A DNA stretch of 63,978 bases, filler included, from Chloroflexota bacterium (GTDB taxonomy: Bacteria > Chloroflexota > Chloroflexia > QHBQ01): NCBI GenBank assembly GCA_043754535.1. It is 3 parts of 3 records of this genome, joined end to end, with 100 filler letters (N's around TTAATTAATTAA, not from the genome) between each part and the next. Parts side by side here need not be neighbours in the genome. Positions count along the whole stretch, not along the records: positions 28,358 to 55,819 come from JAYUUN010000107.1; 2 more parts are not named here. One strand, written 5' to 3'. Numbering within the stretch: the stretch's first letter is position 1; the number at the start of each line of letters is the position of its first letter. Made by a program: the position numbers and the translations under genes. A model generated the notes under the pieces. That model ran no database searches and had not been told where the DNA came from. It saw only the letters and a list, made by a program, of their open reading frames with translations. This document shows, piece by piece, positions 14,288 through 53,314 of this stretch.

Positions 14288-16477
14288 CTAGCCAACATTG
14301 GGCTTGGCCTGCTCGTGGCTGCGCTCGGCGTAGTCATCGCTGGCGGAAGCCTCTAGTTCTAGCCACAGGCTGGCTGGGGGCGGAGACGGGGGCTGGTGGC
14401 TGGCAGTGAGCAGGCTAGCAAGCTCCTGCAACTGATCGGCGGCACTGCTAACCACGTGGCTGTAGCTAACCAGTTGCTGCCCAGCCGCCGCCAGCGAGTC
14501 TACTGTCTTGACCGCCACCAGGCTACCATCGCGCTGCTGGCTGGTCTCCTGCGCAATGATGCTCGCGCTGTCGTCCAACTGGCCGATAGTATCGCTAACC
14601 ACCTGCATGATAGATTGCAAGATGTTACCCTGCTGCACCCCCTCGCTAATCGCCAACTGGCCGCGCTCGGTCGCCTCTGCCGCCCTACGGATGCCACCCT
14701 GCACCTCGCTAAGGCTAGCCTGCGCGTTCTCGGCTGCCACCGCAGCAGCAGCCGCCAACTGCTGCACCTGGCGGGCGATAGCTGCGAACCGCTTGCCTGC
14801 CGCCCCCGCCCCGCTAGCCTCGATGGTCGCGTTGAGGGCTAGCAGATGAGTCTCCTCGGCGATGCGGTTCACCTCAGCAATAATCGCGCTGATTGCCCCG
14901 CTGTTGCGTACCTGCCGCTGGGTAATGCTAACCAGGCTTTCGCTCTCGGCTCGCAGCCGCTTGAGGACGCTCTGGCTCTGCTCAACCGCCAACTGCCCCT
15001 GCGCCTGCTCGCGCAACAAGGTCGCGGCCACTGCTGCCACCTGCTCGCCGTAGCGGGCGATGCGGGCCGCCGACTGGCTAAGCTGGCTGAAGGTGGCCGC
15101 TATCTCACGCAGGCTGGCAGCCTGTTCAGCGGCCAGTGCCTCCTGCTGCTCGGCACTGAGGCTGAGGCCACCCGCCGAACCCTGCAACCGAAGGCTAACC
15201 TGCTGCTGCTGGCTCTGCCGCCGCTCTCGCTCCTGCTGCAAGCTGTCCACCCGACCTACCATCTGGTTGAAGCCCTGACCCAGTTCGCCAATCTCGCTTG
15301 CGTCAGTCGGCACGCGGGCAGTGAAGTCGCCCACTGCCACCCTGCTCATCGCCTGGTTGAGGCGGCGCAGCGGACGCAGGAACAGCAGGCGGAAGATGCC
15401 GACCACCAGGAAGACAATCACTGCCCCCAGGCTGATCGAACTAAGCGCACTGTTGAACAGCAGTTGGCGGGTGCTGGCATAGGCGAAGCTGGTTGGCGCA
15501 GCCCGAACTACCCCCCAGTGCAGCCGGTTGACCGCCGCTATCGCCGCCACATCGTTGTTAGCATGAGCAAAGTCGCGTTGCAATGGCACGAACGAAAGGA
15601 CGGTCTGGCTGGGCAAGCCATTTGCGTCCTGCGCCAACTCTGCGGTCAACATCTGGCTGCTGGTCAGGTAGCTGCTCCAACTGGCGGTCAGGTTGTCGCG
15701 GATGTCAGGGCGGCTGCTGAGGATTACGTTGCCACTGCTACTAACAAGGAAGGCCTGTTCGGGTGGGGTGAGGCTCTGTGCGCCCCCCATAGTAGCAACA
15801 GTAACTTGCTCAAGGTTAAAGCCGACGATGAGCAGCCCACCATCACCAGGCTGGTCGGCGCGGGGTGGCTGCACTGTAGCAACAATCAACACCAGATTGG
15901 GGGGTAGACCAGCCGCGATGTTGTCCTCTGGGGGGATAATCGTCACTGGGGCAATGCGGGTACCTAGCGTGTAGTACCACTCGAAGGCTCGCAGGTCGAA
16001 GTGCGGCCAGGCTGCGGTAGTCAGGCCAATCAGTGGCCCACCACGCCGGGCGTAGACGGCAAATACGCGGTTGGGCAGGCGGTCAACGTACTGTCTGAGC
16101 AGGCCGCTCACCCTGCCATTGAGGTAGCTGGTGTGCAGCGGGCCGCCTGAACCCTCCTGCTCCCAGGTAGTGGCAGCCTCCTGCATGGCACTGGCATTGA
16201 GCGGGGCAAGGGCGAGGGCGTTGCTCAAGGCGGGTGCCTCGGCCAGGGTAGCCAGCCGCTCACCCTCCTCGACCAGGATAGTCGCCAGTTCGTTGGCGCG
16301 GGCAGCGGCCCAGACGCGCTGTTCGCCCTGCACCCGCGCTCGCAGGTCGTCAGCCGCGCGCTGGTAGCCAAAGTAGCCGAGGGCAAAGGAGGCAGGCACA
16401 ATCACCAGCAGCAGCAGCAGGATGAACCTGAACAGCAGAGAAGCAAAGACCCGTTGCCTGCCACTGTTACCTCTCAC
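14288..16477 (-). CDS. Methyl-accepting chemotaxis protein (TM-Cache-like sensor-TM-HAMP-signalling)
   Basis: Two TMs; HAMP LRPLRRL...GDF...EIGELGQGFNQM; IAEETHLLALNATIEA. Confidence 0.9.
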   Translation of the reverse strand: MRGNSGRQRVFASLLFRFILLLLLVIVPASFALGYFGYQRAADDLRARVQGEQRVWAAARANELATILVEEGERLATLAEAPALSNALALAPLNASAMQEAATTWEQEGSGGPLHTSYLNGRVSGLLRQYVDRLPNRVFAVYARRGGPLIGLTTAAWPHFDLRAFEWYYTLGTRIAPVTIIPPEDNIAAGLPPNLVLIVATVQPPRADQPGDGGLLIVGFNLEQVTVATMGGAQSLTPPEQAFLVSSSGNVILSSRPDIRDNLTASWSSYLTSSQMLTAELAQDANGLPSQTVLSFVPLQRDFAHANNDVAAIAAVNRLHWGVVRAAPTSFAYASTRQLLFNSALSSISLGAVIVFLVVGIFRLLFLRPLRRLNQAMSRVAVGDFTARVPTDASEIGELGQGFNQMVGRVDSLQQERERRQSQQQQVSLRLQGSAGGLSLSAEQQEALAAEQAASLREIAATFSQLSQSAARIARYGEQVAAVAATLLREQAQGQLAVEQSQSVLKRLRAESESLVSITQRQVRNSGAISAIIAEVNRIAEETHLLALNATIEASGAGAAGKRFAAIARQVQQLAAAAAVAAENAQASLSEVQGGIRRAAEATERGQLAISEGVQQGNILQSIMQVVSDTIGQLDDSASIIAQETSQQRDGSLVAVKTVDSLAAAGQQLVSYSHVVSSAADQLQELASLLTASHQPPSPPPASLWLELEASASDDYAERSHEQAKPNVG

Positions 16478-17059: not shown

Positions 17060-19189
17060 CTACATTCGTGTCTCCAGCCGCTCGGCAAGGTGTTGCAGTT
17101 CGTTGGCCGCGCTGCCAACCGCCTGGCTATAGCTGACCAGTTGTTGGCTGGCAGCAGCGAGAGCCTCAACCGCATTGTTGGCGGTGATGCTACCCTCCTT
17201 CTGCTGGCGGGTCTCCAACTCAATAGTCTGCGTCGAGTCGTTCAACTGCTCAATCCGCTGGCCGAGGATGAGCATCACCGACTCCAGAGTTCTGCCCTGC
17301 TGCACTCCCTCGCTAATCGCTGCCTGTTCGCGTCCTGTAGCCTCAACAGCCCTTTGGATGCCGCCCTGCACCTCGCTGAGGCTGGCCTGCGCGTTCTCGG
17401 CTGCCACCGCTGCGGCTGTCGCCAACTGCTGCACCTGGCGGGCGATAGCTGCGAACCGCTTGCCTGCCGCCCCCGCCCCACTAGCCTCGATGGTCGCGTT
17501 GAGGGCTAGCAGGTGGGTCTCCTCGGCGATGCGGTTCACCTCGGCAATCACTGCACTGATCGCCCAGCTGTTGCGTACCTGCCGCTGGGCGATGCTGACC
17601 AGGCTTTCGCTCTCGGTTCGTAGCCGCTTGAGGACGCTCTGGCTCTGCTCGACTGCCATCCGCCCTGCCTCCTGCTCGCGCAGCAAGTCGGTTGAGACAT
17701 GGGCTACCTGTTCGCCATAGCGTGCAATCCGCTCGGCAGAACGATTTAGTTGGCCGAAGGTGGCAGCGATTTCGCGCAGGCTAGCGGCTTGCTCGCTGGC
17801 GAAGGCACGCTGCTGCTGCGCACTCTGGTTCAGGTCGCCCGCCGAACCCTGCAACTGACGGCTGACCTGCTGCTGCTGGCTCTGCCGCCGCTCCCGCTCC
17901 CGCTGCAAGCTGTCCACGTCGCCCACCATCTGGTTGAAGCCCTGGCCCAGTTCGCCAATCTCGCTTGCGTCAGTCGGCACGCGGGCAGCGAAGTCGCCCA
18001 CTGCCACCCTGCTCATCGCCTGGTTGAGGCGGCGCAGGGGGCGTAGGAACAGCAGACGGAAGATACCGATTACCACAAAGATTAGCACGGCGGCCAGCAC
18101 TACCGTGCCGAGGACTGAGTTGCTAAGCTGGCTCTCCAACCCCCTGTAAGCGGCGGCAGTGGGGGTGGCTCGCACGACCGACCAGCGCAGTTCGGTCAGG
18201 GCATTGATGATCAGCGGATCAAGCTCTCCCACATCCTCATCAGAGAGCGAAAGCGAGGAGTAGGAGACGAGCGTGGGGACGGCCTGCCCTTCGGCATCCA
18301 GCGGGCTGACGAAGCTCTGGCCCTCGATAGTAGGCTGGCCGATCTGCTGCATCCACGCTGCACTCAACTGGCTGGTAGTAACGGTGGACGCTCCCCCCCT
18401 ACTTACAACCAGCCCTTCACCATCTACCAACCACGAGCTATCGCCATCGGTCGGGTCTAGCCGCAAGATGCGCTGGCTGAGGCGATCCATGTTGATGCCC
18501 ACCGCCAGCAAGCCACGTGAGGAGTTGGCGTTGATGCTAGCCACTGGCACGATCAGCACCGCTATGTTGTTGCCGATGCCCTCGATGTTCTGGTGGGAGA
18601 CGATCTCCACTGCGCCAGTAAGCGGACGCGGCCACCAGCCGAAGCCTTGCAGGTCGGCCTGCGGCCAGTAGGTTGTATTGACGGCTAGTAGTGCGCCCTG
18701 GTTGTTGGCGAGCAAGGCGAAGGCCTGGGTGTTACTGTTGGTGTATAGACTGAGGATTGTGCCTGCCCCGTTGTTGACGTAGAGTGGGCGGAACTTATCC
18801 TTGCCAACTGCGTCTTGCCGCCAGCGTTCGCGCAAGTCAGCGAAAGCAGCGGGGGTCACAGTGCGGGTTACTTCAGTCTGGATCGACGAATCGCGGGTCA
18901 GAATCCGCATACTGCGTAGCTCGCGGGTGATGAAGCCACTCATGCTGTCGCTACGACCAGCAGCCCAGGTCGCCTGCACCGAGGCCGCCTGCTTGCGGAT
19001 CAGTTCGGCCACCCTGCCGTAGCTGAATTGACCGACCGCAATGGAAATCGGCACAATAACCAGCAGCAACAGGAGAATCAGCCTGAAAAGGAGGGAGGAG
19101 GTTAGGTGGCGGGTAGCAGTGCGGGTTTGCAAGGTAGCCTCGGCTTGTCCAGGTGAGGGCGTAACCAGGCAGCCAGTTGCTCTACTCAC
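17060..19189 (-). CDS. Methyl-accepting chemotaxis protein, paralog of 14288-16477
   Basis: Same architecture; near-identical HAMP and signalling region. Confidence 0.9.
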   Translation of the reverse strand: MSRATGCLVTPSPGQAEATLQTRTATRHLTSSLLFRLILLLLLVIVPISIAVGQFSYGRVAELIRKQAASVQATWAAGRSDSMSGFITRELRSMRILTRDSSIQTEVTRTVTPAAFADLRERWRQDAVGKDKFRPLYVNNGAGTILSLYTNSNTQAFALLANNQGALLAVNTTYWPQADLQGFGWWPRPLTGAVEIVSHQNIEGIGNNIAVLIVPVASINANSSRGLLAVGINMDRLSQRILRLDPTDGDSSWLVDGEGLVVSRGGASTVTTSQLSAAWMQQIGQPTIEGQSFVSPLDAEGQAVPTLVSYSSLSLSDEDVGELDPLIINALTELRWSVVRATPTAAAYRGLESQLSNSVLGTVVLAAVLIFVVIGIFRLLFLRPLRRLNQAMSRVAVGDFAARVPTDASEIGELGQGFNQMVGDVDSLQRERERRQSQQQQVSRQLQGSAGDLNQSAQQQRAFASEQAASLREIAATFGQLNRSAERIARYGEQVAHVSTDLLREQEAGRMAVEQSQSVLKRLRTESESLVSIAQRQVRNSWAISAVIAEVNRIAEETHLLALNATIEASGAGAAGKRFAAIARQVQQLATAAAVAAENAQASLSEVQGGIQRAVEATGREQAAISEGVQQGRTLESVMLILGQRIEQLNDSTQTIELETRQQKEGSITANNAVEALAAASQQLVSYSQAVGSAANELQHLAERLETRM

Positions 19190-30497: not shown

Positions 30498-31058
30498 CTA
30501 GCTCACCACTAACCCGCGCTGTGTCCGCCATTCCTCAACTGTCAGCCCATAGCGCAGTTCGTCGTGGTACTCACTGTTGGTCAGGGCTACGCGGCGGATG
30601 CGCCCCTCTTGCACGAAGCCAAGCGCAGCGAACAGGGCGATGGCGGGCTGGTTGAAGCTGTACACGCCAACCGTCACCTTCTGGTAGTGCAACTCCTCGA
30701 AGAAGTAGCGCAGCAGTATCTTGAGCGCATCGCGGGCGTAGCCCTTGCGCCGATGTGGTTCGTGGATGCTCAGGCCAAGCTCGAAGCAGCCCACCCGCCG
30801 ATTGCAGAGGTGGCTATCAATCGAACCAACCTGCTGCCCACGCAGATCGGTGATCATCAGGAAGTATTCGTCGTTCTTTGGCTCTTTGACCGCCTGCTTC
30901 TCAACCCACTTGCGGATGGCCGCCTTTGAGCGGGGAAAGGGTATTTGAGACAGTGTCCGTGCTGCTTCGTTGTCTTGCTCACGCTCAAACAACCACCCCA
31001 AGTCCTCCGGCTCGACCGCCCGCAGGCGCACCATTTCACCCTGCCAGTACTTGCCCAT
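30498..31058 (-). CDS. GNAT N-acetyltransferase (RimJ/RimL type)
   Basis: VRLRAVEPED, HRRKGYA, N.PAI.LF..LGF..EG. Confidence 0.9.
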   Translation of the reverse strand: MGKYWQGEMVRLRAVEPEDLGWLFEREQDNEAARTLSQIPFPRSKAAIRKWVEKQAVKEPKNDEYFLMITDLRGQQVGSIDSHLCNRRVGCFELGLSIHEPHRRKGYARDALKILLRYFFEELHYQKVTVGVYSFNQPAIALFAALGFVQEGRIRRVALTNSEYHDELRYGLTVEEWRTQRGLVVS

Positions 31059-31141
31059 TGCTTGTCCCTCCTTTGGCTTGATTGTACCATACAATTGCGG
31101 GTAGCGGTTCACCTCTTTGGCTGTAGAAACGCCAGGCAGAG

Positions 31142-36147: not shown

Positions 36148-36611
36148 GCAGTTGGCTGCTTACCCTCGGCTTCCTGCTCTGCCTCAGTCTTCTGCTCGGC
36201 TAGCCACTGCTTGCTGGTGTTGGTGATCAGGCTGCGCGACCTGCCGATCATGGCTCGAATGCTCATGATGTAGCGGTTGCGCTCGTAGGGATCGCCGCTG
36301 GCATTGGCAGCCAGGCGCAGGAGGGCGGCCTCGGCAGTATCGGCATAGCTGAGGATGCTGAGGGCAGTGAAGCCGTTCGCCAGCCGCCCGCGCACCCCTT
36401 GCTCCACTGGCGCAAGGAAGATGTCTGGATCGTTCTGGCGCAGACTCTCGGCCAGGCCGCCCAGGTAGTGGATCGTGCGTTCGCGGATCGCCGCTACCTC
36501 GTCGCCGTCGTACAGCCCCCCAATGCTGGCGTGGGCCTCCACCGCGATATCCTGGGCCAACCCCTCTAGCGCATCGCTGATCAATTCAGCCAGCTTCTGT
36601 TCGGCAAGCAT
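36144..36611 (-). CDS. Hypothetical all-helical protein, possibly RsbRD-N/globin-like
   Basis: 155-aa ORF with SD AGGA; helical amphipathic pattern; fold guess is weak. Confidence 0.6.
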   Translation of the reverse strand: MLAEQKLAELISDALEGLAQDIAVEAHASIGGLYDGDEVAAIRERTIHYLGGLAESLRQNDPDIFLAPVEQGVRGRLANGFTALSILSYADTAEAALLRLAANASGDPYERNRYIMSIRAMIGRSRSLITNTSKQWLAEQKTEAEQEAEGKQPTA

Positions 36612-36744
36612 GATGTTACTTCCTAATGCTATGCTAGCTACCAGTCAGCCCACTTTCAGCGACTGGCTTACCGCTCTTTGTTCCAGTGGGGATAGTTGTG
36701 TTATTATAAGCCAACTATTCAGGGAAAGCAAGGGGGGTAGGCTG

Positions 36745-37497
36745 ATGGCAAAGAAGGGGTCAGTGCATTTCGATCTGCTAGAGTTGTTCAAGGGGGAGAC
36801 CTGCCCAGTCTGTCGCCTAGCCAGCCGCCACGTTGCCCGCTATCTAGACACGATCTCCTACGAGGCGGTCAATGACATTCAGACCCGCGACAAGCTGCGC
36901 GCTGCTCTGGGCTTCTGCCCCACCCACGCCTGGCACTGGCTTAACCTGCACAACGCTCTCGGCACTGCGATCATCTACAAGGACGTGTTGACCGAACTGA
37001 TCCGCCGCTTGGACAGCCTCAGCCCGCCAAAGGTCGGCGGCTTCTTCGCCGCACGGGGCCGCAAGAACGAGCCGGACATTGGTCTCTCGCCCAGTGGCCC
37101 TTGCCCCGCCTGTGAGGTGCGCGACGAGTCTTTTGAGCGTAGCCTGGACACCTTCACTAGCCTGCTGGGTGACAGCGAGTTCGTCGAGGAGTACCAGAAA
37201 AGTCGGGCTGGTCTCTGCCTCAGCCACCTGCGCGCCGTCCTCAGCCACAGCCACGAGCCGCAGTTCAGCCGCCTGGTAGCGATTGAGAAGGCGCGCTTGG
37301 AGTTCACCGTCGGCCAATTGGACGAACTAATCCGCAAGTACGACTACCGCTTCCGCGAGGAGGCGGTGGGCGACGAGGCTGGCGCACCAACCCGTGCCGT
37401 CAAGCGGCTGGCGGGCATGGAGAAGCTGTTAGCTCCTGCCACTCCGCTGGCAAAAGCAGATTGGGCGCAACGAATCAGCCGCGGCTGCGTATTATAA
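36745..37497 (+). CDS. DUF6062-like Cys/His-rich protein
   Basis: Duplicated CPxC...G(F/L)CxxH units; ELIRKYDYRF. Confidence 0.75.
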   Translation: MAKKGSVHFDLLELFKGETCPVCRLASRHVARYLDTISYEAVNDIQTRDKLRAALGFCPTHAWHWLNLHNALGTAIIYKDVLTELIRRLDSLSPPKVGGFFAARGRKNEPDIGLSPSGPCPACEVRDESFERSLDTFTSLLGDSEFVEEYQKSRAGLCLSHLRAVLSHSHEPQFSRLVAIEKARLEFTVGQLDELIRKYDYRFREEAVGDEAGAPTRAVKRLAGMEKLLAPATPLAKADWAQRISRGCVL

Positions 37498-49631: not shown

Positions 49632-49720
49632 CTGGCAGCAAAGCGTAGCGGTGGGCCAGGACGAAATGTGGTTTGTACAATTGGTGTCCCAACACAAAGC
49701 TGAAGGAGAAGGGGGAGAGC

Positions 49721-52700
49721 ATGGCAAAGAAGACGGTGATTGTTACTGGGGCGGCTAGTGGGATCGGGCGGGCCACCGCCTTGCAGTTCGCCAGTCGGGG
49801 TTGGCAGGTGTTCGCCACCGCTCGTGACCCCCGCAAGATCGACTATGCAGGCAGCGACATCACCGCCCTGCCACTGGACGTGACCAGCGAGCCGTCGATC
49901 AGTGCGGCAGTAGACGAGGTGCGTAGCAGAGTGGGGCGGATCGACGTGCTGATCAACAATGCTGGCTATGGCATCTTCGGCGCAGTCGAGCAGACTTCGT
50001 TGGACGAGTTCCGCCAGCTTTTTGAGACCAATGTGTTTGGTGCAATTGCCTGCGCGAAGGCCGTGCTAGACGCTATGCACCAGCAGGGCAAGGGCAAGAT
50101 CATCAACATCAGTTCGATAGCGGGCAAGATCGCCCCCCCGTTCTCCGGTGCTTACGCCGCCAGCAAGTTCGCCCTGGAGGGGGTGAGCGACAGTATGCGG
50201 GTGGAACTCAAGCCCTTTGGCATCCACGTCGTGCTGATCCAACCAGGGCCAGTGCGAACCAACTTCAGCACTGCTCAGCGCACGATGGAGTCCTGCTTTG
50301 ATGATCAGTCGCGCTATGCCTCCTACTTTGGCGTCTATGACCGGATGGAGGATGAGCGTCTCACCGAGCGGATGGAGCGGACGGCTGCTGCCCCCGAAGA
50401 AGTGGCAGACGTGGTATACTATGCTGCCACCCGCCGTACACCTCATCCCCGCTACGTTGCCCCCGTGCGCTACAGCCCGCTGCTGCGCCTGCTGCGAATG
50501 GCCCCAACCCGGCTGGTGGATGCGATCCAGTCCCAGATCATCGGATATGCGAGGAACAAGTTAGTGGACATTGCCGCAGTCAAGGGTTGGTTGCCCGACC
50601 TGCTGAAGAGTCTGAGCCAGGCGGCCAGCCGTGACGGGCAGCAGCCCTACATTACAGCCCTGGTCACTGCCACCCAGGGTAGCAACGTGACGGTCAATGA
50701 CCGCGAGCAAAGCGTAACAGCGCGCGACTCATCAACCGGGCTGGTGCTGCGGGCCTTTAACGGCCTCTACTTCGAGGAGTATTCAACCACCAGCCTCACC
50801 GCTGACGCAGTGCTGCGCGAGGGGCGCGAGTGGCTGGCGACCCTCCACCTGCACCAGCAGCCCCACCCTGGGGCCGCTCCCTTTACTGCACTCCCGCCGC
50901 TGGTGTGTGACTTCGTAATGCCTGCCCGCCTGCCCGTGGGTAGCGTAGACCTGCGCGACTCGCTGGCTCAGATGCAGGCGATCCACCGCCTGGTTAGCGG
51001 CAGCGAACGAGAGCGGGTGCGTGGTGAAGCGCGTATCGCCAATGTGCAGATCGTCTACTCCGAGGAGATTAGCCAGCGCATCTTTGCCGCCCCTGGCCGC
51101 CTGCTAACCCAGCTGGTGCCGCGCAGCCGCTACTACGTCAACATCTATGCTACCGATGGTGAGCAGGTACGCAGTGCCTACTACATCACCGCCAAAACGG
51201 TTGGCTACGAACTGGTCGAGGATAGCGACTGGGATTTGGCCGCCTTGCGCGAGGAGGCTTTTGCCCTGCTAGCCGCCCAGCCAATCCCCCCTGGCGAGTA
51301 CGACATTATCGGCGGCCCAGAGGTGACTGGCGTACTGGCCCATGAGAGCTTCGGGCATGGGGTAGAGACAGATATGTTCATGAAGGAACGCGCCCGCTCT
51401 GCTCACTACATCGGTAAGCAACTGGCGGCAGCGAACGTCAACCTGCTGGACGACCCCACCTATCCAACTGGCAACGGCAGCTACTTCTTCGACGACGAGG
51501 GTCTGCTGGCCGAACCAACTTACGTGATACGCAACGGCATCTTCGAGCGTGGGATCACCGACGCATACTCGGCCATGCGCCTCGGCCTCGCACGCTCGGC
51601 GAACGGGCGGCGTGAGAGCTTCATGCGGAAGGCTTATGCCCGAATGTCCAACACCTACTTTGCTGCTGGCGACCAGCCAGCGCAGGCGATCATTGGCGCG
51701 GTCGAGCGTGGGGTGTACTTGCCGCAGATGGAGAGCGGCATGGAAGACCCCAAGAACTGGGGCATCCAGATCATCCCCAGCTTTGGCCGTGAGATCAGGG
51801 ATGGCAAGCTGACCAACACCTACTACTCACCGATTGGCATGACCGGCTACGTGCCAGACGTGCTAGCGAGCATCAGCATGGTCGGTGACGACGTATCCCT
51901 GGCCGAGGGCGGTAGTTGCGGCAAGGGTCACAAAGAGTGGGTGCCGGTTGCCAGCGGTGGCCCCACCATGCGCTTCCGGGCGCGCTTGAGTTTAAGGAGC
52001 GAAGGATTGGACGACATTCTAGAGCAGGCTGCCGCCACCTTGCGGCAGCAGGGTGGGGCCGACGAGTGGGCGATCCGCCGCACCCGCAGCCGCAGCACCC
52101 AGCTATTTACCGTCGGCACCGAGCCAGAGGCCATGCGCCACAACCTGACTGACCGCCTCAATATTGACCTCTTTGTGGATCACGACGGGCGACGCGGCGA
52201 AAGTGCGTTTGTAGTCAATACGGGCGACCTTGCTGCCTTGCGCGAGGCGGCTGAGCAGGCTATCTTTGGGGCTGGGCTGGCTGGCAATGCGCCATACCGC
52301 TTGCCTGCCGCCACTACTTACCCCCAACTAGAATTGGTAGACGAGCAAATCGCCGCCAATCCTGCTGGTCTCGCTGGGCAGATCGTCAACGAGGTAGCCG
52401 CAGCGGTGGCCGCCAGTGAGGGGACGCGCCTCAGTGCCATCGAAATCTTCCTCAACTACAACGAACACAGCCTGCTGACCAGCACTGGCGCGCAAGGTAG
52501 CTATGCAGCCACTACCGTGACCCTCGACTTGACCCTGCTCACGGGGCCGCAGGGCGAGGACGCGGAGAGCCAACTACTGACCAGCCGCCGCCGTCTGGCC
52601 GACCTACCCGTAGCCGAACTGGTGCGGGCGCAGGCCCAGTACTCCGCCGACAGCCTGCGGGCTGGTCTGCCGCAGACAGGCCGCTGGCCGGTGATCTTCA

Positions 52701-53314
52701 GCGAAGTAGCACTGGAAGACCTGTTCGACCCCTTCCTCTACCGCAGTAGCGCAGCGGCGAAGTACCGTAGCCTCAGCCCCCTGTCGGTTGGCGAGCGGAT
52801 CATAGTCGGCCAGCAGCATGGCACGCCACTCACCCTGGTGAGCGACGCGACCCTGCCCTATGGTCTACTCAGCCAGCCGTTCGACGACCTCGGCATCCCC
52901 TCCCAGCGGCTTGTGCTGATCGAGGGCGACGTGTTGCGCCAGTTCAGCGCGGGGCAGCGTTATGCCAGCTACCTGAACCTGGCTGCCAGCGGCCCTCGTG
53001 GTAACACCGTATTGCCAGCAGGCGACACCGCTGCCAGCGATCTGCTTCGACCCAGCAGCGGCCTTGCCTACCAGGTGATCTCCTTCTCTGCCTTCGCGCC
53101 CGACCCTATCAGCGGCGACTTCGTGGCTGAGATTCGACTCGGCTACGAATGGCGGCCCGACGGTAGCAAGCGGCCCATTCGAGGCGGTGCCGTCAGCGGC
53201 AACATCTTCGCCAACTTCGCTAGCGCAACCTACAGCCGCGAGACCACCTTCAACGGCAGCTACAGTGGCCCCGCCTACATCCGCCTGGAGGATTTGACTA
53301 TTGCTGGGTCGTAG
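49721..53314 (+). CDS. Continuous ORF: SDR oxidoreductase (49721-~50560) + TldD metalloprotease (50564-~51991) + TldE/PmbA (52007-53314)
   Basis: SDR: TGAASGIG, NNAG, YAASK. TldD: HESFGH, FFDDEG, RMSNT, GSCGK. TldE: PFDDLG, PISGDF, G.VSGN. No in-frame stop. Confidence 0.85.
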   Translation: MAKKTVIVTGAASGIGRATALQFASRGWQVFATARDPRKIDYAGSDITALPLDVTSEPSISAAVDEVRSRVGRIDVLINNAGYGIFGAVEQTSLDEFRQLFETNVFGAIACAKAVLDAMHQQGKGKIINISSIAGKIAPPFSGAYAASKFALEGVSDSMRVELKPFGIHVVLIQPGPVRTNFSTAQRTMESCFDDQSRYASYFGVYDRMEDERLTERMERTAAAPEEVADVVYYAATRRTPHPRYVAPVRYSPLLRLLRMAPTRLVDAIQSQIIGYARNKLVDIAAVKGWLPDLLKSLSQAASRDGQQPYITALVTATQGSNVTVNDREQSVTARDSSTGLVLRAFNGLYFEEYSTTSLTADAVLREGREWLATLHLHQQPHPGAAPFTALPPLVCDFVMPARLPVGSVDLRDSLAQMQAIHRLVSGSERERVRGEARIANVQIVYSEEISQRIFAAPGRLLTQLVPRSRYYVNIYATDGEQVRSAYYITAKTVGYELVEDSDWDLAALREEAFALLAAQPIPPGEYDIIGGPEVTGVLAHESFGHGVETDMFMKERARSAHYIGKQLAAANVNLLDDPTYPTGNGSYFFDDEGLLAEPTYVIRNGIFERGITDAYSAMRLGLARSANGRRESFMRKAYARMSNTYFAAGDQPAQAIIGAVERGVYLPQMESGMEDPKNWGIQIIPSFGREIRDGKLTNTYYSPIGMTGYVPDVLASISMVGDDVSLAEGGSCGKGHKEWVPVASGGPTMRFRARLSLRSEGLDDILEQAAATLRQQGGADEWAIRRTRSRSTQLFTVGTEPEAMRHNLTDRLNIDLFVDHDGRRGESAFVVNTGDLAALREAAEQAIFGAGLAGNAPYRLPAATTYPQLELVDEQIAANPAGLAGQIVNEVAAAVAASEGTRLSAIEIFLNYNEHSLLTSTGAQGSYAATTVTLDLTLLTGPQGEDAESQLLTSRRRLADLPVAELVRAQAQYSADSLRAGLPQTGRWPVIFSEVALEDLFDPFLYRSSAAAKYRSLSPLSVGERIIVGQQHGTPLTLVSDATLPYGLLSQPFDDLGIPSQRLVLIEGDVLRQFSAGQRYASYLNLAASGPRGNTVLPAGDTAASDLLRPSSGLAYQVISFSAFAPDPISGDFVAEIRLGYEWRPDGSKRPIRGGAVSGNIFANFASATYSRETTFNGSYSGPAYIRLEDLTIAGS

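Follow-up and report, generated by a model that had tools for sequence, protein, structure and literature searches.

A 63,978-nucleotide stretch of DNA from a Chloroflexota bacterium (assembly GCA_043754535.1), analysed at its full length and called the window below, carries an open reading frame (ORF) of 1213 codons on the plus strand (49673-53314) that, under the standard bacterial code (NCBI table 11), would join a short-chain dehydrogenase/reductase (SDR), TldD and PmbA/TldE in one protein. This three-enzyme fusion is most likely an artefact of the standard bacterial table: because the codon TTA appears to be a fourth stop signal in this organism, the locus most likely consists of three neighbouring, separate genes. 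Comparison of sequences leads us to a probability of about 0.85 that TTA terminates translation in the Chloroflexia family to which the genome belongs, in both of its genera. The window joins three contigs of a 3.87-Mb genome (G000), which has 132 contigs, 61% GC and 89% completeness. An earlier note on this DNA had described each junction of the apparent fusion as a rare TTA codon overlapping a stop in the +1 frame, and had proposed either a switch between separate proteins and fusions that depends on the transfer RNA (tRNA) for leucine with anticodon UAA, or two independent single-T insertions, biological or artefactual. If TTA itself terminates, the simpler reading is that no T was inserted and no frameshift is needed.

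Read directly, the two junctions have the letters, the +1-frame stops and the internal ribosome-binding sites and starts that had been claimed for them. At the first, GAGGA is followed by AC, AAG, TTA and GTG (50564-50566); at the second, AGT TTA is followed by AGG AGC GAA GGA and TTG (52007-52009), with AAGGAG beginning on the last base of the TTA. The overlapping +1-frame stops are TAG (50562-50564) and TAA (51993-51995). A codon count bears out that the ORF has no TTA codon besides these two, both of which are in frame (codon indices 296 and 773). The view that the junctions lie at natural domain ends also holds, Pfam and NCBIfam profiles ending just ahead of both TTAs. Full-length SDR profiles of NCBIfam reach position 271/274 at ORF residues 288-293, with TTA as residue 297, and the NCBIfam TldD profile reaches 437/443 at residue 768, with TTA as residue 774. 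That both TTAs sit at domain ends of the ORF is far beyond chance, TTA being the rarest codon of the genome. Under the reading proposed here, UUA would no longer encode leucine in this family and would act as a fourth termination codon: the SDR would end at the first TTA, TldD would start at the adjoining GTG and end at the second TTA, and its PmbA/TldE partner would start at the TTG behind an AAGGAG of its own (Table 1).

Table 1. Features of the SDR-TldD-PmbA/TldE locus, and one further candidate TTA gene end, in window coordinates.
Feature	Position	Strand	Basis
Putative purine-rich ribosome-binding stretch GAAGGAGAAGGGGGAG ahead of SDR start	49703..49718	+	Read directly; function predicted
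Gene 1, short-chain dehydrogenase/reductase, 280 aa, ATG start	49721..50560	+	Pfam adh_short, motifs
GAGGA, likely ribosome-binding site of gene 2, 8 nt ahead of GTG	50551..50555	+	Identical in G001; function predicted
TTA, proposed stop of gene 1	50561..50563	+	In frame; kept in G001 and 4 metagenome contigs; genome-wide TTA behaviour
Gene 2, TldD-like metalloprotease subunit, 476 aa, GTG start	50564..51991	+	Pfam, NCBIfam, HESFGH motif
TTA, proposed stop of gene 2	51992..51994	+	G010 orthologue ends in TAG there; kept in G001 and 4 metagenome contigs
AAGGAG, putative ribosome-binding site of gene 3, 7 nt ahead of TTG	51994..51999	+	Identical in G001; function predicted
Gene 3, PmbA/TldE-like subunit, 435 aa, TTG start, TAG stop 53312-53314	52007..53314	+	Pfam
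TTA, candidate end of DUF6062 gene (ORF 36475-37494), then 21-codon non-coding-like tail	37429..37431	+	

Gene 1 matches Pfam adh_short at residues 4-189 (profile 1-193/195, E 1.3e-54) and has the SDR motifs TGxxxGxG and YxxxK as TGAASGIG and YAASK. Gene 2 matches PmbA_TldD_3rd at residues 243-472 (profile 1-214/220, E 6e-42), with HExxxH present as HESFGH, and gene 3 matches the same family at residues 224-434 (profile 1-220/220, E 6.8e-21). The last two thus form a TldD/PmbA pair, with the C-terminal PmbA_TldD domain in both, HExxxH in TldD and the genes adjacent. The frame running through all three is open only if TTA is taken as sense, and the genome-wide evidence speaks against that. TldD stands alone, at 467-487 codons, in distant orthologues (G010, G012 and G014; 48% identity), those of G010 and G012 being 467-474 aa long. 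In G010, TldD is followed by a separate PmbA gene of 439 aa, in the same order as in the window, and ends in ARLS-TAG at the exact position of the ARLS-TTA of the window; the gene upstream of it is unrelated, with no SDR. The claim that separate proteins are made is probably right. As a contrast with the window, the same G010 gene has TTA as an ordinary leucine codon two codons ahead of its stop (CGG TTA AGC TAG; TTA at L005:2853-2855).

The genome-wide behaviour of TTA was examined in 3032 non-overlapping ORFs of at least 100 codons. TTA had been called rare, and it is in fact the rarest codon (743 of 1,149,450 ORF codons, or 0.65 per 1000), followed by AGA at 1.7; CTA stands at 11.3 and TTG at 15.1. 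The last ORF decile holds 32% of the in-frame TTAs, and 17% lie within 10 codons of a canonical stop, against 2-7% for control codons; the first decile holds a further 29%, mostly in sequence upstream of true starts. Past TTAs near ORF ends, both the codon-usage score and the GC content at third codon positions drop to non-coding values, with no such drop after control codons. For the 222 in-frame TTAs whose 40 preceding codons have a good coding score (good TTAs), the 25 codons that follow score -0.67, -0.77 and -0.70 in the three frames, non-coding in all of them and not to be told apart from sequence past genuine TAA, TAG and TGA stops. The corresponding scores are -0.65, -0.67 and -0.67 after TAA (n=542) and -0.63, -0.72 and -0.69 after TAG (n=979), and frame 0 stays at about +0.5 after CTA, ATA and TCA. 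Among all 61 sense codons TTA is the sole outlier, with 82% of its downstream scores negative; AGA comes next at 24%, and the canonical stops lie at 83-90%. The next in-frame stop lies a median of 17.5 codons beyond TTA and 17-21 codons beyond the canonical stops. Counted in this way TTA ends about 9% of the scored genes (222 of 2478), compared with 979 for TAG, 735 for TGA and 542 for TAA. The 222 stop-like TTAs are followed by G in 51% of cases, T in 24%, C in 15% and A in 9%, a context that resembles that of TGA, the stop specific to release factor 2 (RF2), and not that of TAG. Across the 132 ORFs that reach 900 codons or more, TTA is confined to the vicinity of the 5' end, that of the 3' end and five sites in mid-ORF.

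Other TTA junctions were sought by scanning, with Pfam and NCBIfam, all 40 good TTAs that are followed by tails of at least 60 codons; these lie in 38 ORFs. In the 19 informative ORFs (21 TTAs, this locus included) TTA stands between two families or marks a profile end, and it never falls inside a match. Thus TTA separates peptide deformylase (Def) from an endonuclease/phosphatase (EEP), a thiamine-binding protein from AccC, whose profile begins (1/449) three residues later, an aminoglycoside-kinase-like protein (APH) from RNase PH (profile 1-235/236), an AsnC regulator from LysE, and thiolase (392/393) from a hexapeptide transferase; it also stands at the profile ends of isocitrate dehydrogenase, LysR, DnaB and CobW. 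At least 10 of the informative junctions and ends have a ribosome-binding site with a start codon behind the TTA. Among the other long-tail ORFs, four have matches on one side only and one is ambiguous. One of the five mid-ORF sites is in a GT-C/GH35 ORF of 1573 codons (L015; C1:32855-37573, minus strand), where TTA at codon 784 lies 17 residues ahead of the GH35 domain, with GGAGG and ATG coming after it; this ORF is probably two genes.

We then compared gene ends with those of relatives. The 80 residues ahead of 213 good TTAs were searched against DNA sampled from relatives, and 28 alignments, from 15 genes, reach to within 2 residues of the TTA. A homologue stop, canonical or TTA, falls between -1 and +2 codons of the TTA in 22 of the 28 alignments and for 13 of the 15 genes. 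For the gene adjoining prfB, the homologue stop falls within this range in 8/8 outgroup orthologues. The six misses are matches of low identity, and a repeat-rich paralogue family accounts for four of them. When TTA-ended ORFs of G001, a second species of the same genus, are compared the other way round, the G000 counterpart of the TTA is TTA in five of six cases, TAA in one and never a sense codon.

Two of the long ORFs have further features of their own. The DnaB gene (L027; C45:29768-32437) contains an intein with a LAGLIDADG domain (residues ~262-588) and ends at a TTA, after which comes a 63-codon non-coding-like tail. In L033 (C81:29240-32800, minus strand) the TTA gene end at codon 500 is followed by a B3_4 domain (574-728) and a complete TyrRS (798-1186). 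We looked for a hidden second stop between these two and rejected it, as their Pro/Asp-rich linker holds no TTA, stop or rare codon; B3_4-TyrRS may be a real fusion.

Five species-level genomes of the collection, in two genera, make up the family (G000-G004), and TTA is stop-like in all five. In DNA samples of 63-100 kb per genome, inner-gene TTA runs at 0.13-0.31 per 1000 codons in G001-G004 versus 2.3-3.8 in outgroups of similar GC. In G001-G004 TTA looks like a stop (n=37, median tail of 14 codons), and in G005, G009 and G010 it looks like sense (n=127, tail 176). One outgroup, G016, was considered as a second stop-like lineage on account of a low inner TTA count and was rejected: its TTAs lie inside coding sequence, and the count is small-sample noise.

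Each genome has one release factor 1 (RF1) and one RF2. Only these two carry the RF-1 domain, and a third gene with a release-factor domain was not found. The codon-reading loop of RF2 is HRMVRISPYDSQHRRQTSF in all five family genomes, and the family RF2 reads ISPYDSQHRRQTSF (SPY...RRQTSF) in 5/5. RRHTSF is kept in 25/25 outgroup genomes of the order, with SPF in 23 and SPY in two; these outgroup counts include three unpublished genomes (G007, G012 and G015), and the histidine is present in 22/22 when they are set aside. Aligned to the solved structure of E. coli RF2, the family has Gln in place of His214 and SPY in place of SPF at 205-207. We take this histidine to contact the codon, and its equivalent in RF1, His197, is said in the title of one paper to be essential. 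In the accessible part of a further study, S205 of SPF is placed at the second codon base (PMC5776981). The histidine is kept in 76 of 80 diverse RF2 loci, a set of one close Chloroflexia relative (L199) and 79 unrelated loci matched by short patterns, which is unhelpful for mapping the distribution of the variant. RF1 shows no change common to both genera. Provided that TTA terminates, we lean towards the altered RF2 as the reader of UUA: an RF2 with SPF changed to SPY and His to Gln would recognise the codon and release the peptide.

RF2 proteins without the conserved histidine also turned up in three unrelated metagenome-assembled genomes, from Lachnospiraceae (L242, GKRMTSF), Bacilli (L256, GKRQTSF) and Coriobacteriia (L271, SPT...RRQTTF). 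These variants may mark other changes of stop-codon reading.

ARAGORN, run on the whole of G000, called 46 tRNAs, with the leucine anticodons CAA, CAG, GAG and TAG; no tRNA-Leu with anticodon TAA was found in this 89% complete genome. BLAST with three different query genes found no tRNA-Leu(UAA) counterpart in G000 or in G001, the absence from G001 being by BLAST only. In family f2, tRNA-Leu(UAA) adjoins tRNA-Gly(GCC) in 15/15 genomes checked (13/13 without the unpublished ones), and it is also present in two f3 genomes; the tRNA-Gly(GCC) of G000 stands alone, mid-contig. In the sister genus (G002-G004) the neighbours of an anticodon-UAA tRNA map mid-contig to contig C57 of G000, where the corresponding place holds a 449-codon ORF and no tRNA. 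The proposed switch, which would depend on tRNA-Leu(UAA), therefore lacks its tRNA as far as these searches of G000 and, by BLAST, of G001 go. ARAGORN also reported a 93-nt "tRNA-Pyl" with anticodon CUA (C31:4032-4124; L125:133-225); as a candidate suppressor it was dropped, since it has no Rfam match at the gathering score and is doubtful as a tRNA.

Several observations weigh against TTA as the stop of a whole family read by an altered RF2, and the sister genus supplies the main unexplained one. All three of its genomes keep the anticodon-UAA tRNA (G002, L195:72-155; G003, L193:80-162; G004, L194:78-161), which scores 53-54 bits on the Rfam tRNA model, like a normal tRNA, so that TTA may still be read at some level there. 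Its acceptor stem, GGGGGTA, differs from those of the others, and a C31/A39 mismatch leaves an anticodon stem of 4 bp, with one compensated pair (T29-A41 vs C29-G41). Stems of 4 bp are described as common in bacteria, at least in the part of PMC13092985 available to us. BLAST found only CAA, CAG and TAG, and no tRNA-Leu(UAA), in the g4 genomes G006, G008, G010 and G014 as well, and a negative of this kind is weak evidence, because G010 plainly uses TTA as sense; the case for absence from G000 leans on ARAGORN and synteny rather than on BLAST. As for RF2, outgroups G013 and G024 combine SPY with the normal histidine and normal TTA use, and the serine substitution of organellar RF2s does not occur here, the serine of SPF being retained in the family (ISPY). 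One good TTA, at residue 220 of an FG-GAP repeat protein (L031; C62:37638-39392), has CTA, for leucine, opposite it in a homologue of 64% identity from G004, and coding continues past it; this TTA may be a rare sense use, or a nonsense mutation that struck one copy within a large family of paralogues. Thirteen of the 38 long-tail ORFs have no family match and are uninformative. The ORFs were called by a greedy longest-ORF heuristic and not by a trained gene finder, and the five family genomes are assemblies of the metagenome-assembled kind, 83-89% complete.

The tRNA of the sister genus may itself be an intermediate stage of the reassignment. In that case the two genera would represent two stages: the genus of G000 would have lost tRNA-Leu(UAA) outright, and the sister genus, with a weakened tRNA(UAA), would still live in an ambiguous intermediate state, UUA being a stop for the most part and occasionally leucine. 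The full combination, namely a four-stop code in the whole family, capture of UUA by an RF2 with Gln and SPY, and genera at two stages, is a tentative proposal to which we give somewhat less than an even chance.

Other explanations of the locus differ in what they make of the two TTAs. The T's of both sites stand in runs (TT and TTT), and ordinary stops appear when one T is taken out of each, as would be expected if sequencing or assembly had added a T. Yet both junctions recur letter for letter in G001, which is 91-94% identical in nucleotides over the locus and so 6-9% diverged. The 1801 bases at 50400-52200 are moreover covered by one contig each from four public metagenome runs of four studies (X5, X8, X9 and X10), at depths of 8-27, with 1-4 substitutions and zero indels. 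An artefact is accordingly so improbable that it can be set aside, and the same identity in a second species and four independent assemblies leaves private single-T insertions unsupported. A true SDR-TldD-PmbA fusion of ~130 kDa, with TTA as a leucine codon and the internal ribosome-binding sites and starts left over as relics, would call for the loss of two stops, by point mutation (TAA/TGA to TTA) or by single-T insertion. Since TldD works jointly with PmbA, such a fusion is conceivable; the frame is open under table 11 and conserved in G001, the TTA in L031 lies at a conserved leucine position, and a tRNA(UAA) exists in the sister genus. We nevertheless regard a fusion as very unlikely, since no UUA-reading tRNA was found in G000, both junction codons are the rarest of the genome, the G010 orthologues are separate genes, and by the same logic ~20 more fusions of unrelated proteins, among them peptide deformylase-nuclease, thiolase-acetyltransferase and kinase-RNase PH, and ~180 non-coding-like C-terminal tails would be demanded.

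Both junction TTAs precede G or A (in the GTG start and the AAGGAG site), as do 60% of the stop-like TTAs, and this suits a hungry-codon mechanism in which ribosomes stall at UUA and slip by +1 onto the overlapping TAG or TAA, making UUA-A/G a composite and possibly tRNA-regulated stop. Stalling is plausible where no cognate tRNA is found, and in human mitochondria, where AGA/AGG are unassigned, ribosomes have been suggested to shift by -1 from these codons onto UAG. As a general mechanism the slip, to which the earlier note had pointed, fails at the 39% of the 222 sites where TTA precedes C or T: no +1 stop is formed, and coding ends all the same. The +1 and +2 frames after TTA are moreover as non-coding as frame 0, the G-rich next base is also found after TGA, and the family-specific change in RF2 offers a direct reader, all of which makes the slip highly improbable. 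It is also conceivable that TTA terminates and is read by something other than the altered RF2, either RF1 (loop PxTE-TK/AN-GRIHTST) or a rescue system acting at an unassigned codon. Two RF1 loop positions after PxTE do differ from the outgroups (TK or AN vs SQ or SG), and SPY by itself coexists with normal TTA use in G013 and G024. Against this, the RF1 changes are not common to the two genera, the RF2 His-to-Gln change is found in 5/5 family genomes versus 0/25 outgroups, the base context after TTA is like that of TGA, no extra release-factor gene was found, and rescue by tagging would presumably destroy ~9% of the proteome. A different reader thus seems unlikely, and termination at TTA by the altered RF2 is the reading we prefer.

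Elsewhere in the window, the coding score of the DUF6062 gene listed in Table 1 is 1.03 before its TTA and -0.58 after it; the family profile is matched up to 238/243 at residue 314, five residues short of the TTA (residue 319). A GNAT acetyltransferase ORF (30501-31112, minus strand) has a TTA at 30510-30512, three codons ahead of its canonical stop, which is probably another TTA gene end. A BLAST comparison of the window with its own genome also revealed two stretches of ~780 bp within the window, 14628-15402 and 17295-18069, that are 86% identical to each other.

To date, changes of a sense codon into a stop are on record for organelles only, and our literature searches found no bacterial or free-living case of a UUA stop or of any sense-to-stop change. 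The Codetta screen of bacterial codes does not mention UUA or TTA in the part of its report that is accessible (PMC8629427). If the reading proposed here is true, a release factor can capture a sense codon outside the tiny-genome conditions of organelles, and the family would provide a natural RF2 variant for probing stop-codon specificity, possibly with an intermediate stage preserved in the sister genus. Annotation by table 11 would be wrong for about one gene in eleven, giving false C-terminal tails or fusions, and code-inference tools that assign only amino acids will miss a sense-to-stop change of this sort.

How does this system compare with those already known? The locus itself resembles other TldD/TldE operons, with a TldD containing HExxxH followed by PmbA, and nothing unusual would be left in it once TTA is a stop; the SDR upstream of TldD is not conserved in G010. 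In Streptomyces, UUA occurs inside genes and is read as leucine when bldA is expressed. As there, UUA is here the rarest codon and its reading as leucine would hang on a single tRNA; unlike in Streptomyces, TTA is found at gene ends, and tRNA-Leu(UAA) was not found in this genus. CGG is reported as unassigned in Mycoplasma capricolum, according to the available part of PMC8629427. Like that codon, TTA is rare, and it may have lost its tRNA as well. An unassigned codon is simply avoided, whereas TTA appears to be put to use, at more than 200 gene ends that lack a canonical stop close by.

The closest parallels are organellar. The mitochondrial code of the labyrinthuleans (Thraustochytrium) is NCBI table 23. 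The available sections of a 2025 study tie the UUA stops of labyrinthulean mitochondria and dinoflagellate plastids to substitution of an invariant RF2 serine ("Ser204" in that paper's numbering), and call the plastid case the first sense-to-stop change outside mitochondria (PMC12574857). The same sections attribute the UUA and UUG stops of mitochondria in Marsupiomonadales and Pseudoscourfieldia to a modified mtRF1a (PMC12574857). In the latter, as would be the case here, a leucine codon has been captured by a modified release factor. There, however, both UUR codons changed and the factor is of the RF1 type, whereas in the present family TTG stays an abundant leucine codon and RF1 has no family-wide change. 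Labyrinthulean mitochondria and the pedinophyte-derived plastids of dinoflagellates come nearer, with UUA turned from leucine into a stop, found at gene ends only, and an altered codon-binding region in an RF2-type factor. Their RF2s substitute the serine; the present family retains it and has changed Phe to Tyr and His to Gln instead. Those organelles also have only a few dozen genes, whereas the genome described here is that of a free-living 3.9-Mb bacterium in which TTA would end about 9% of the scored genes.

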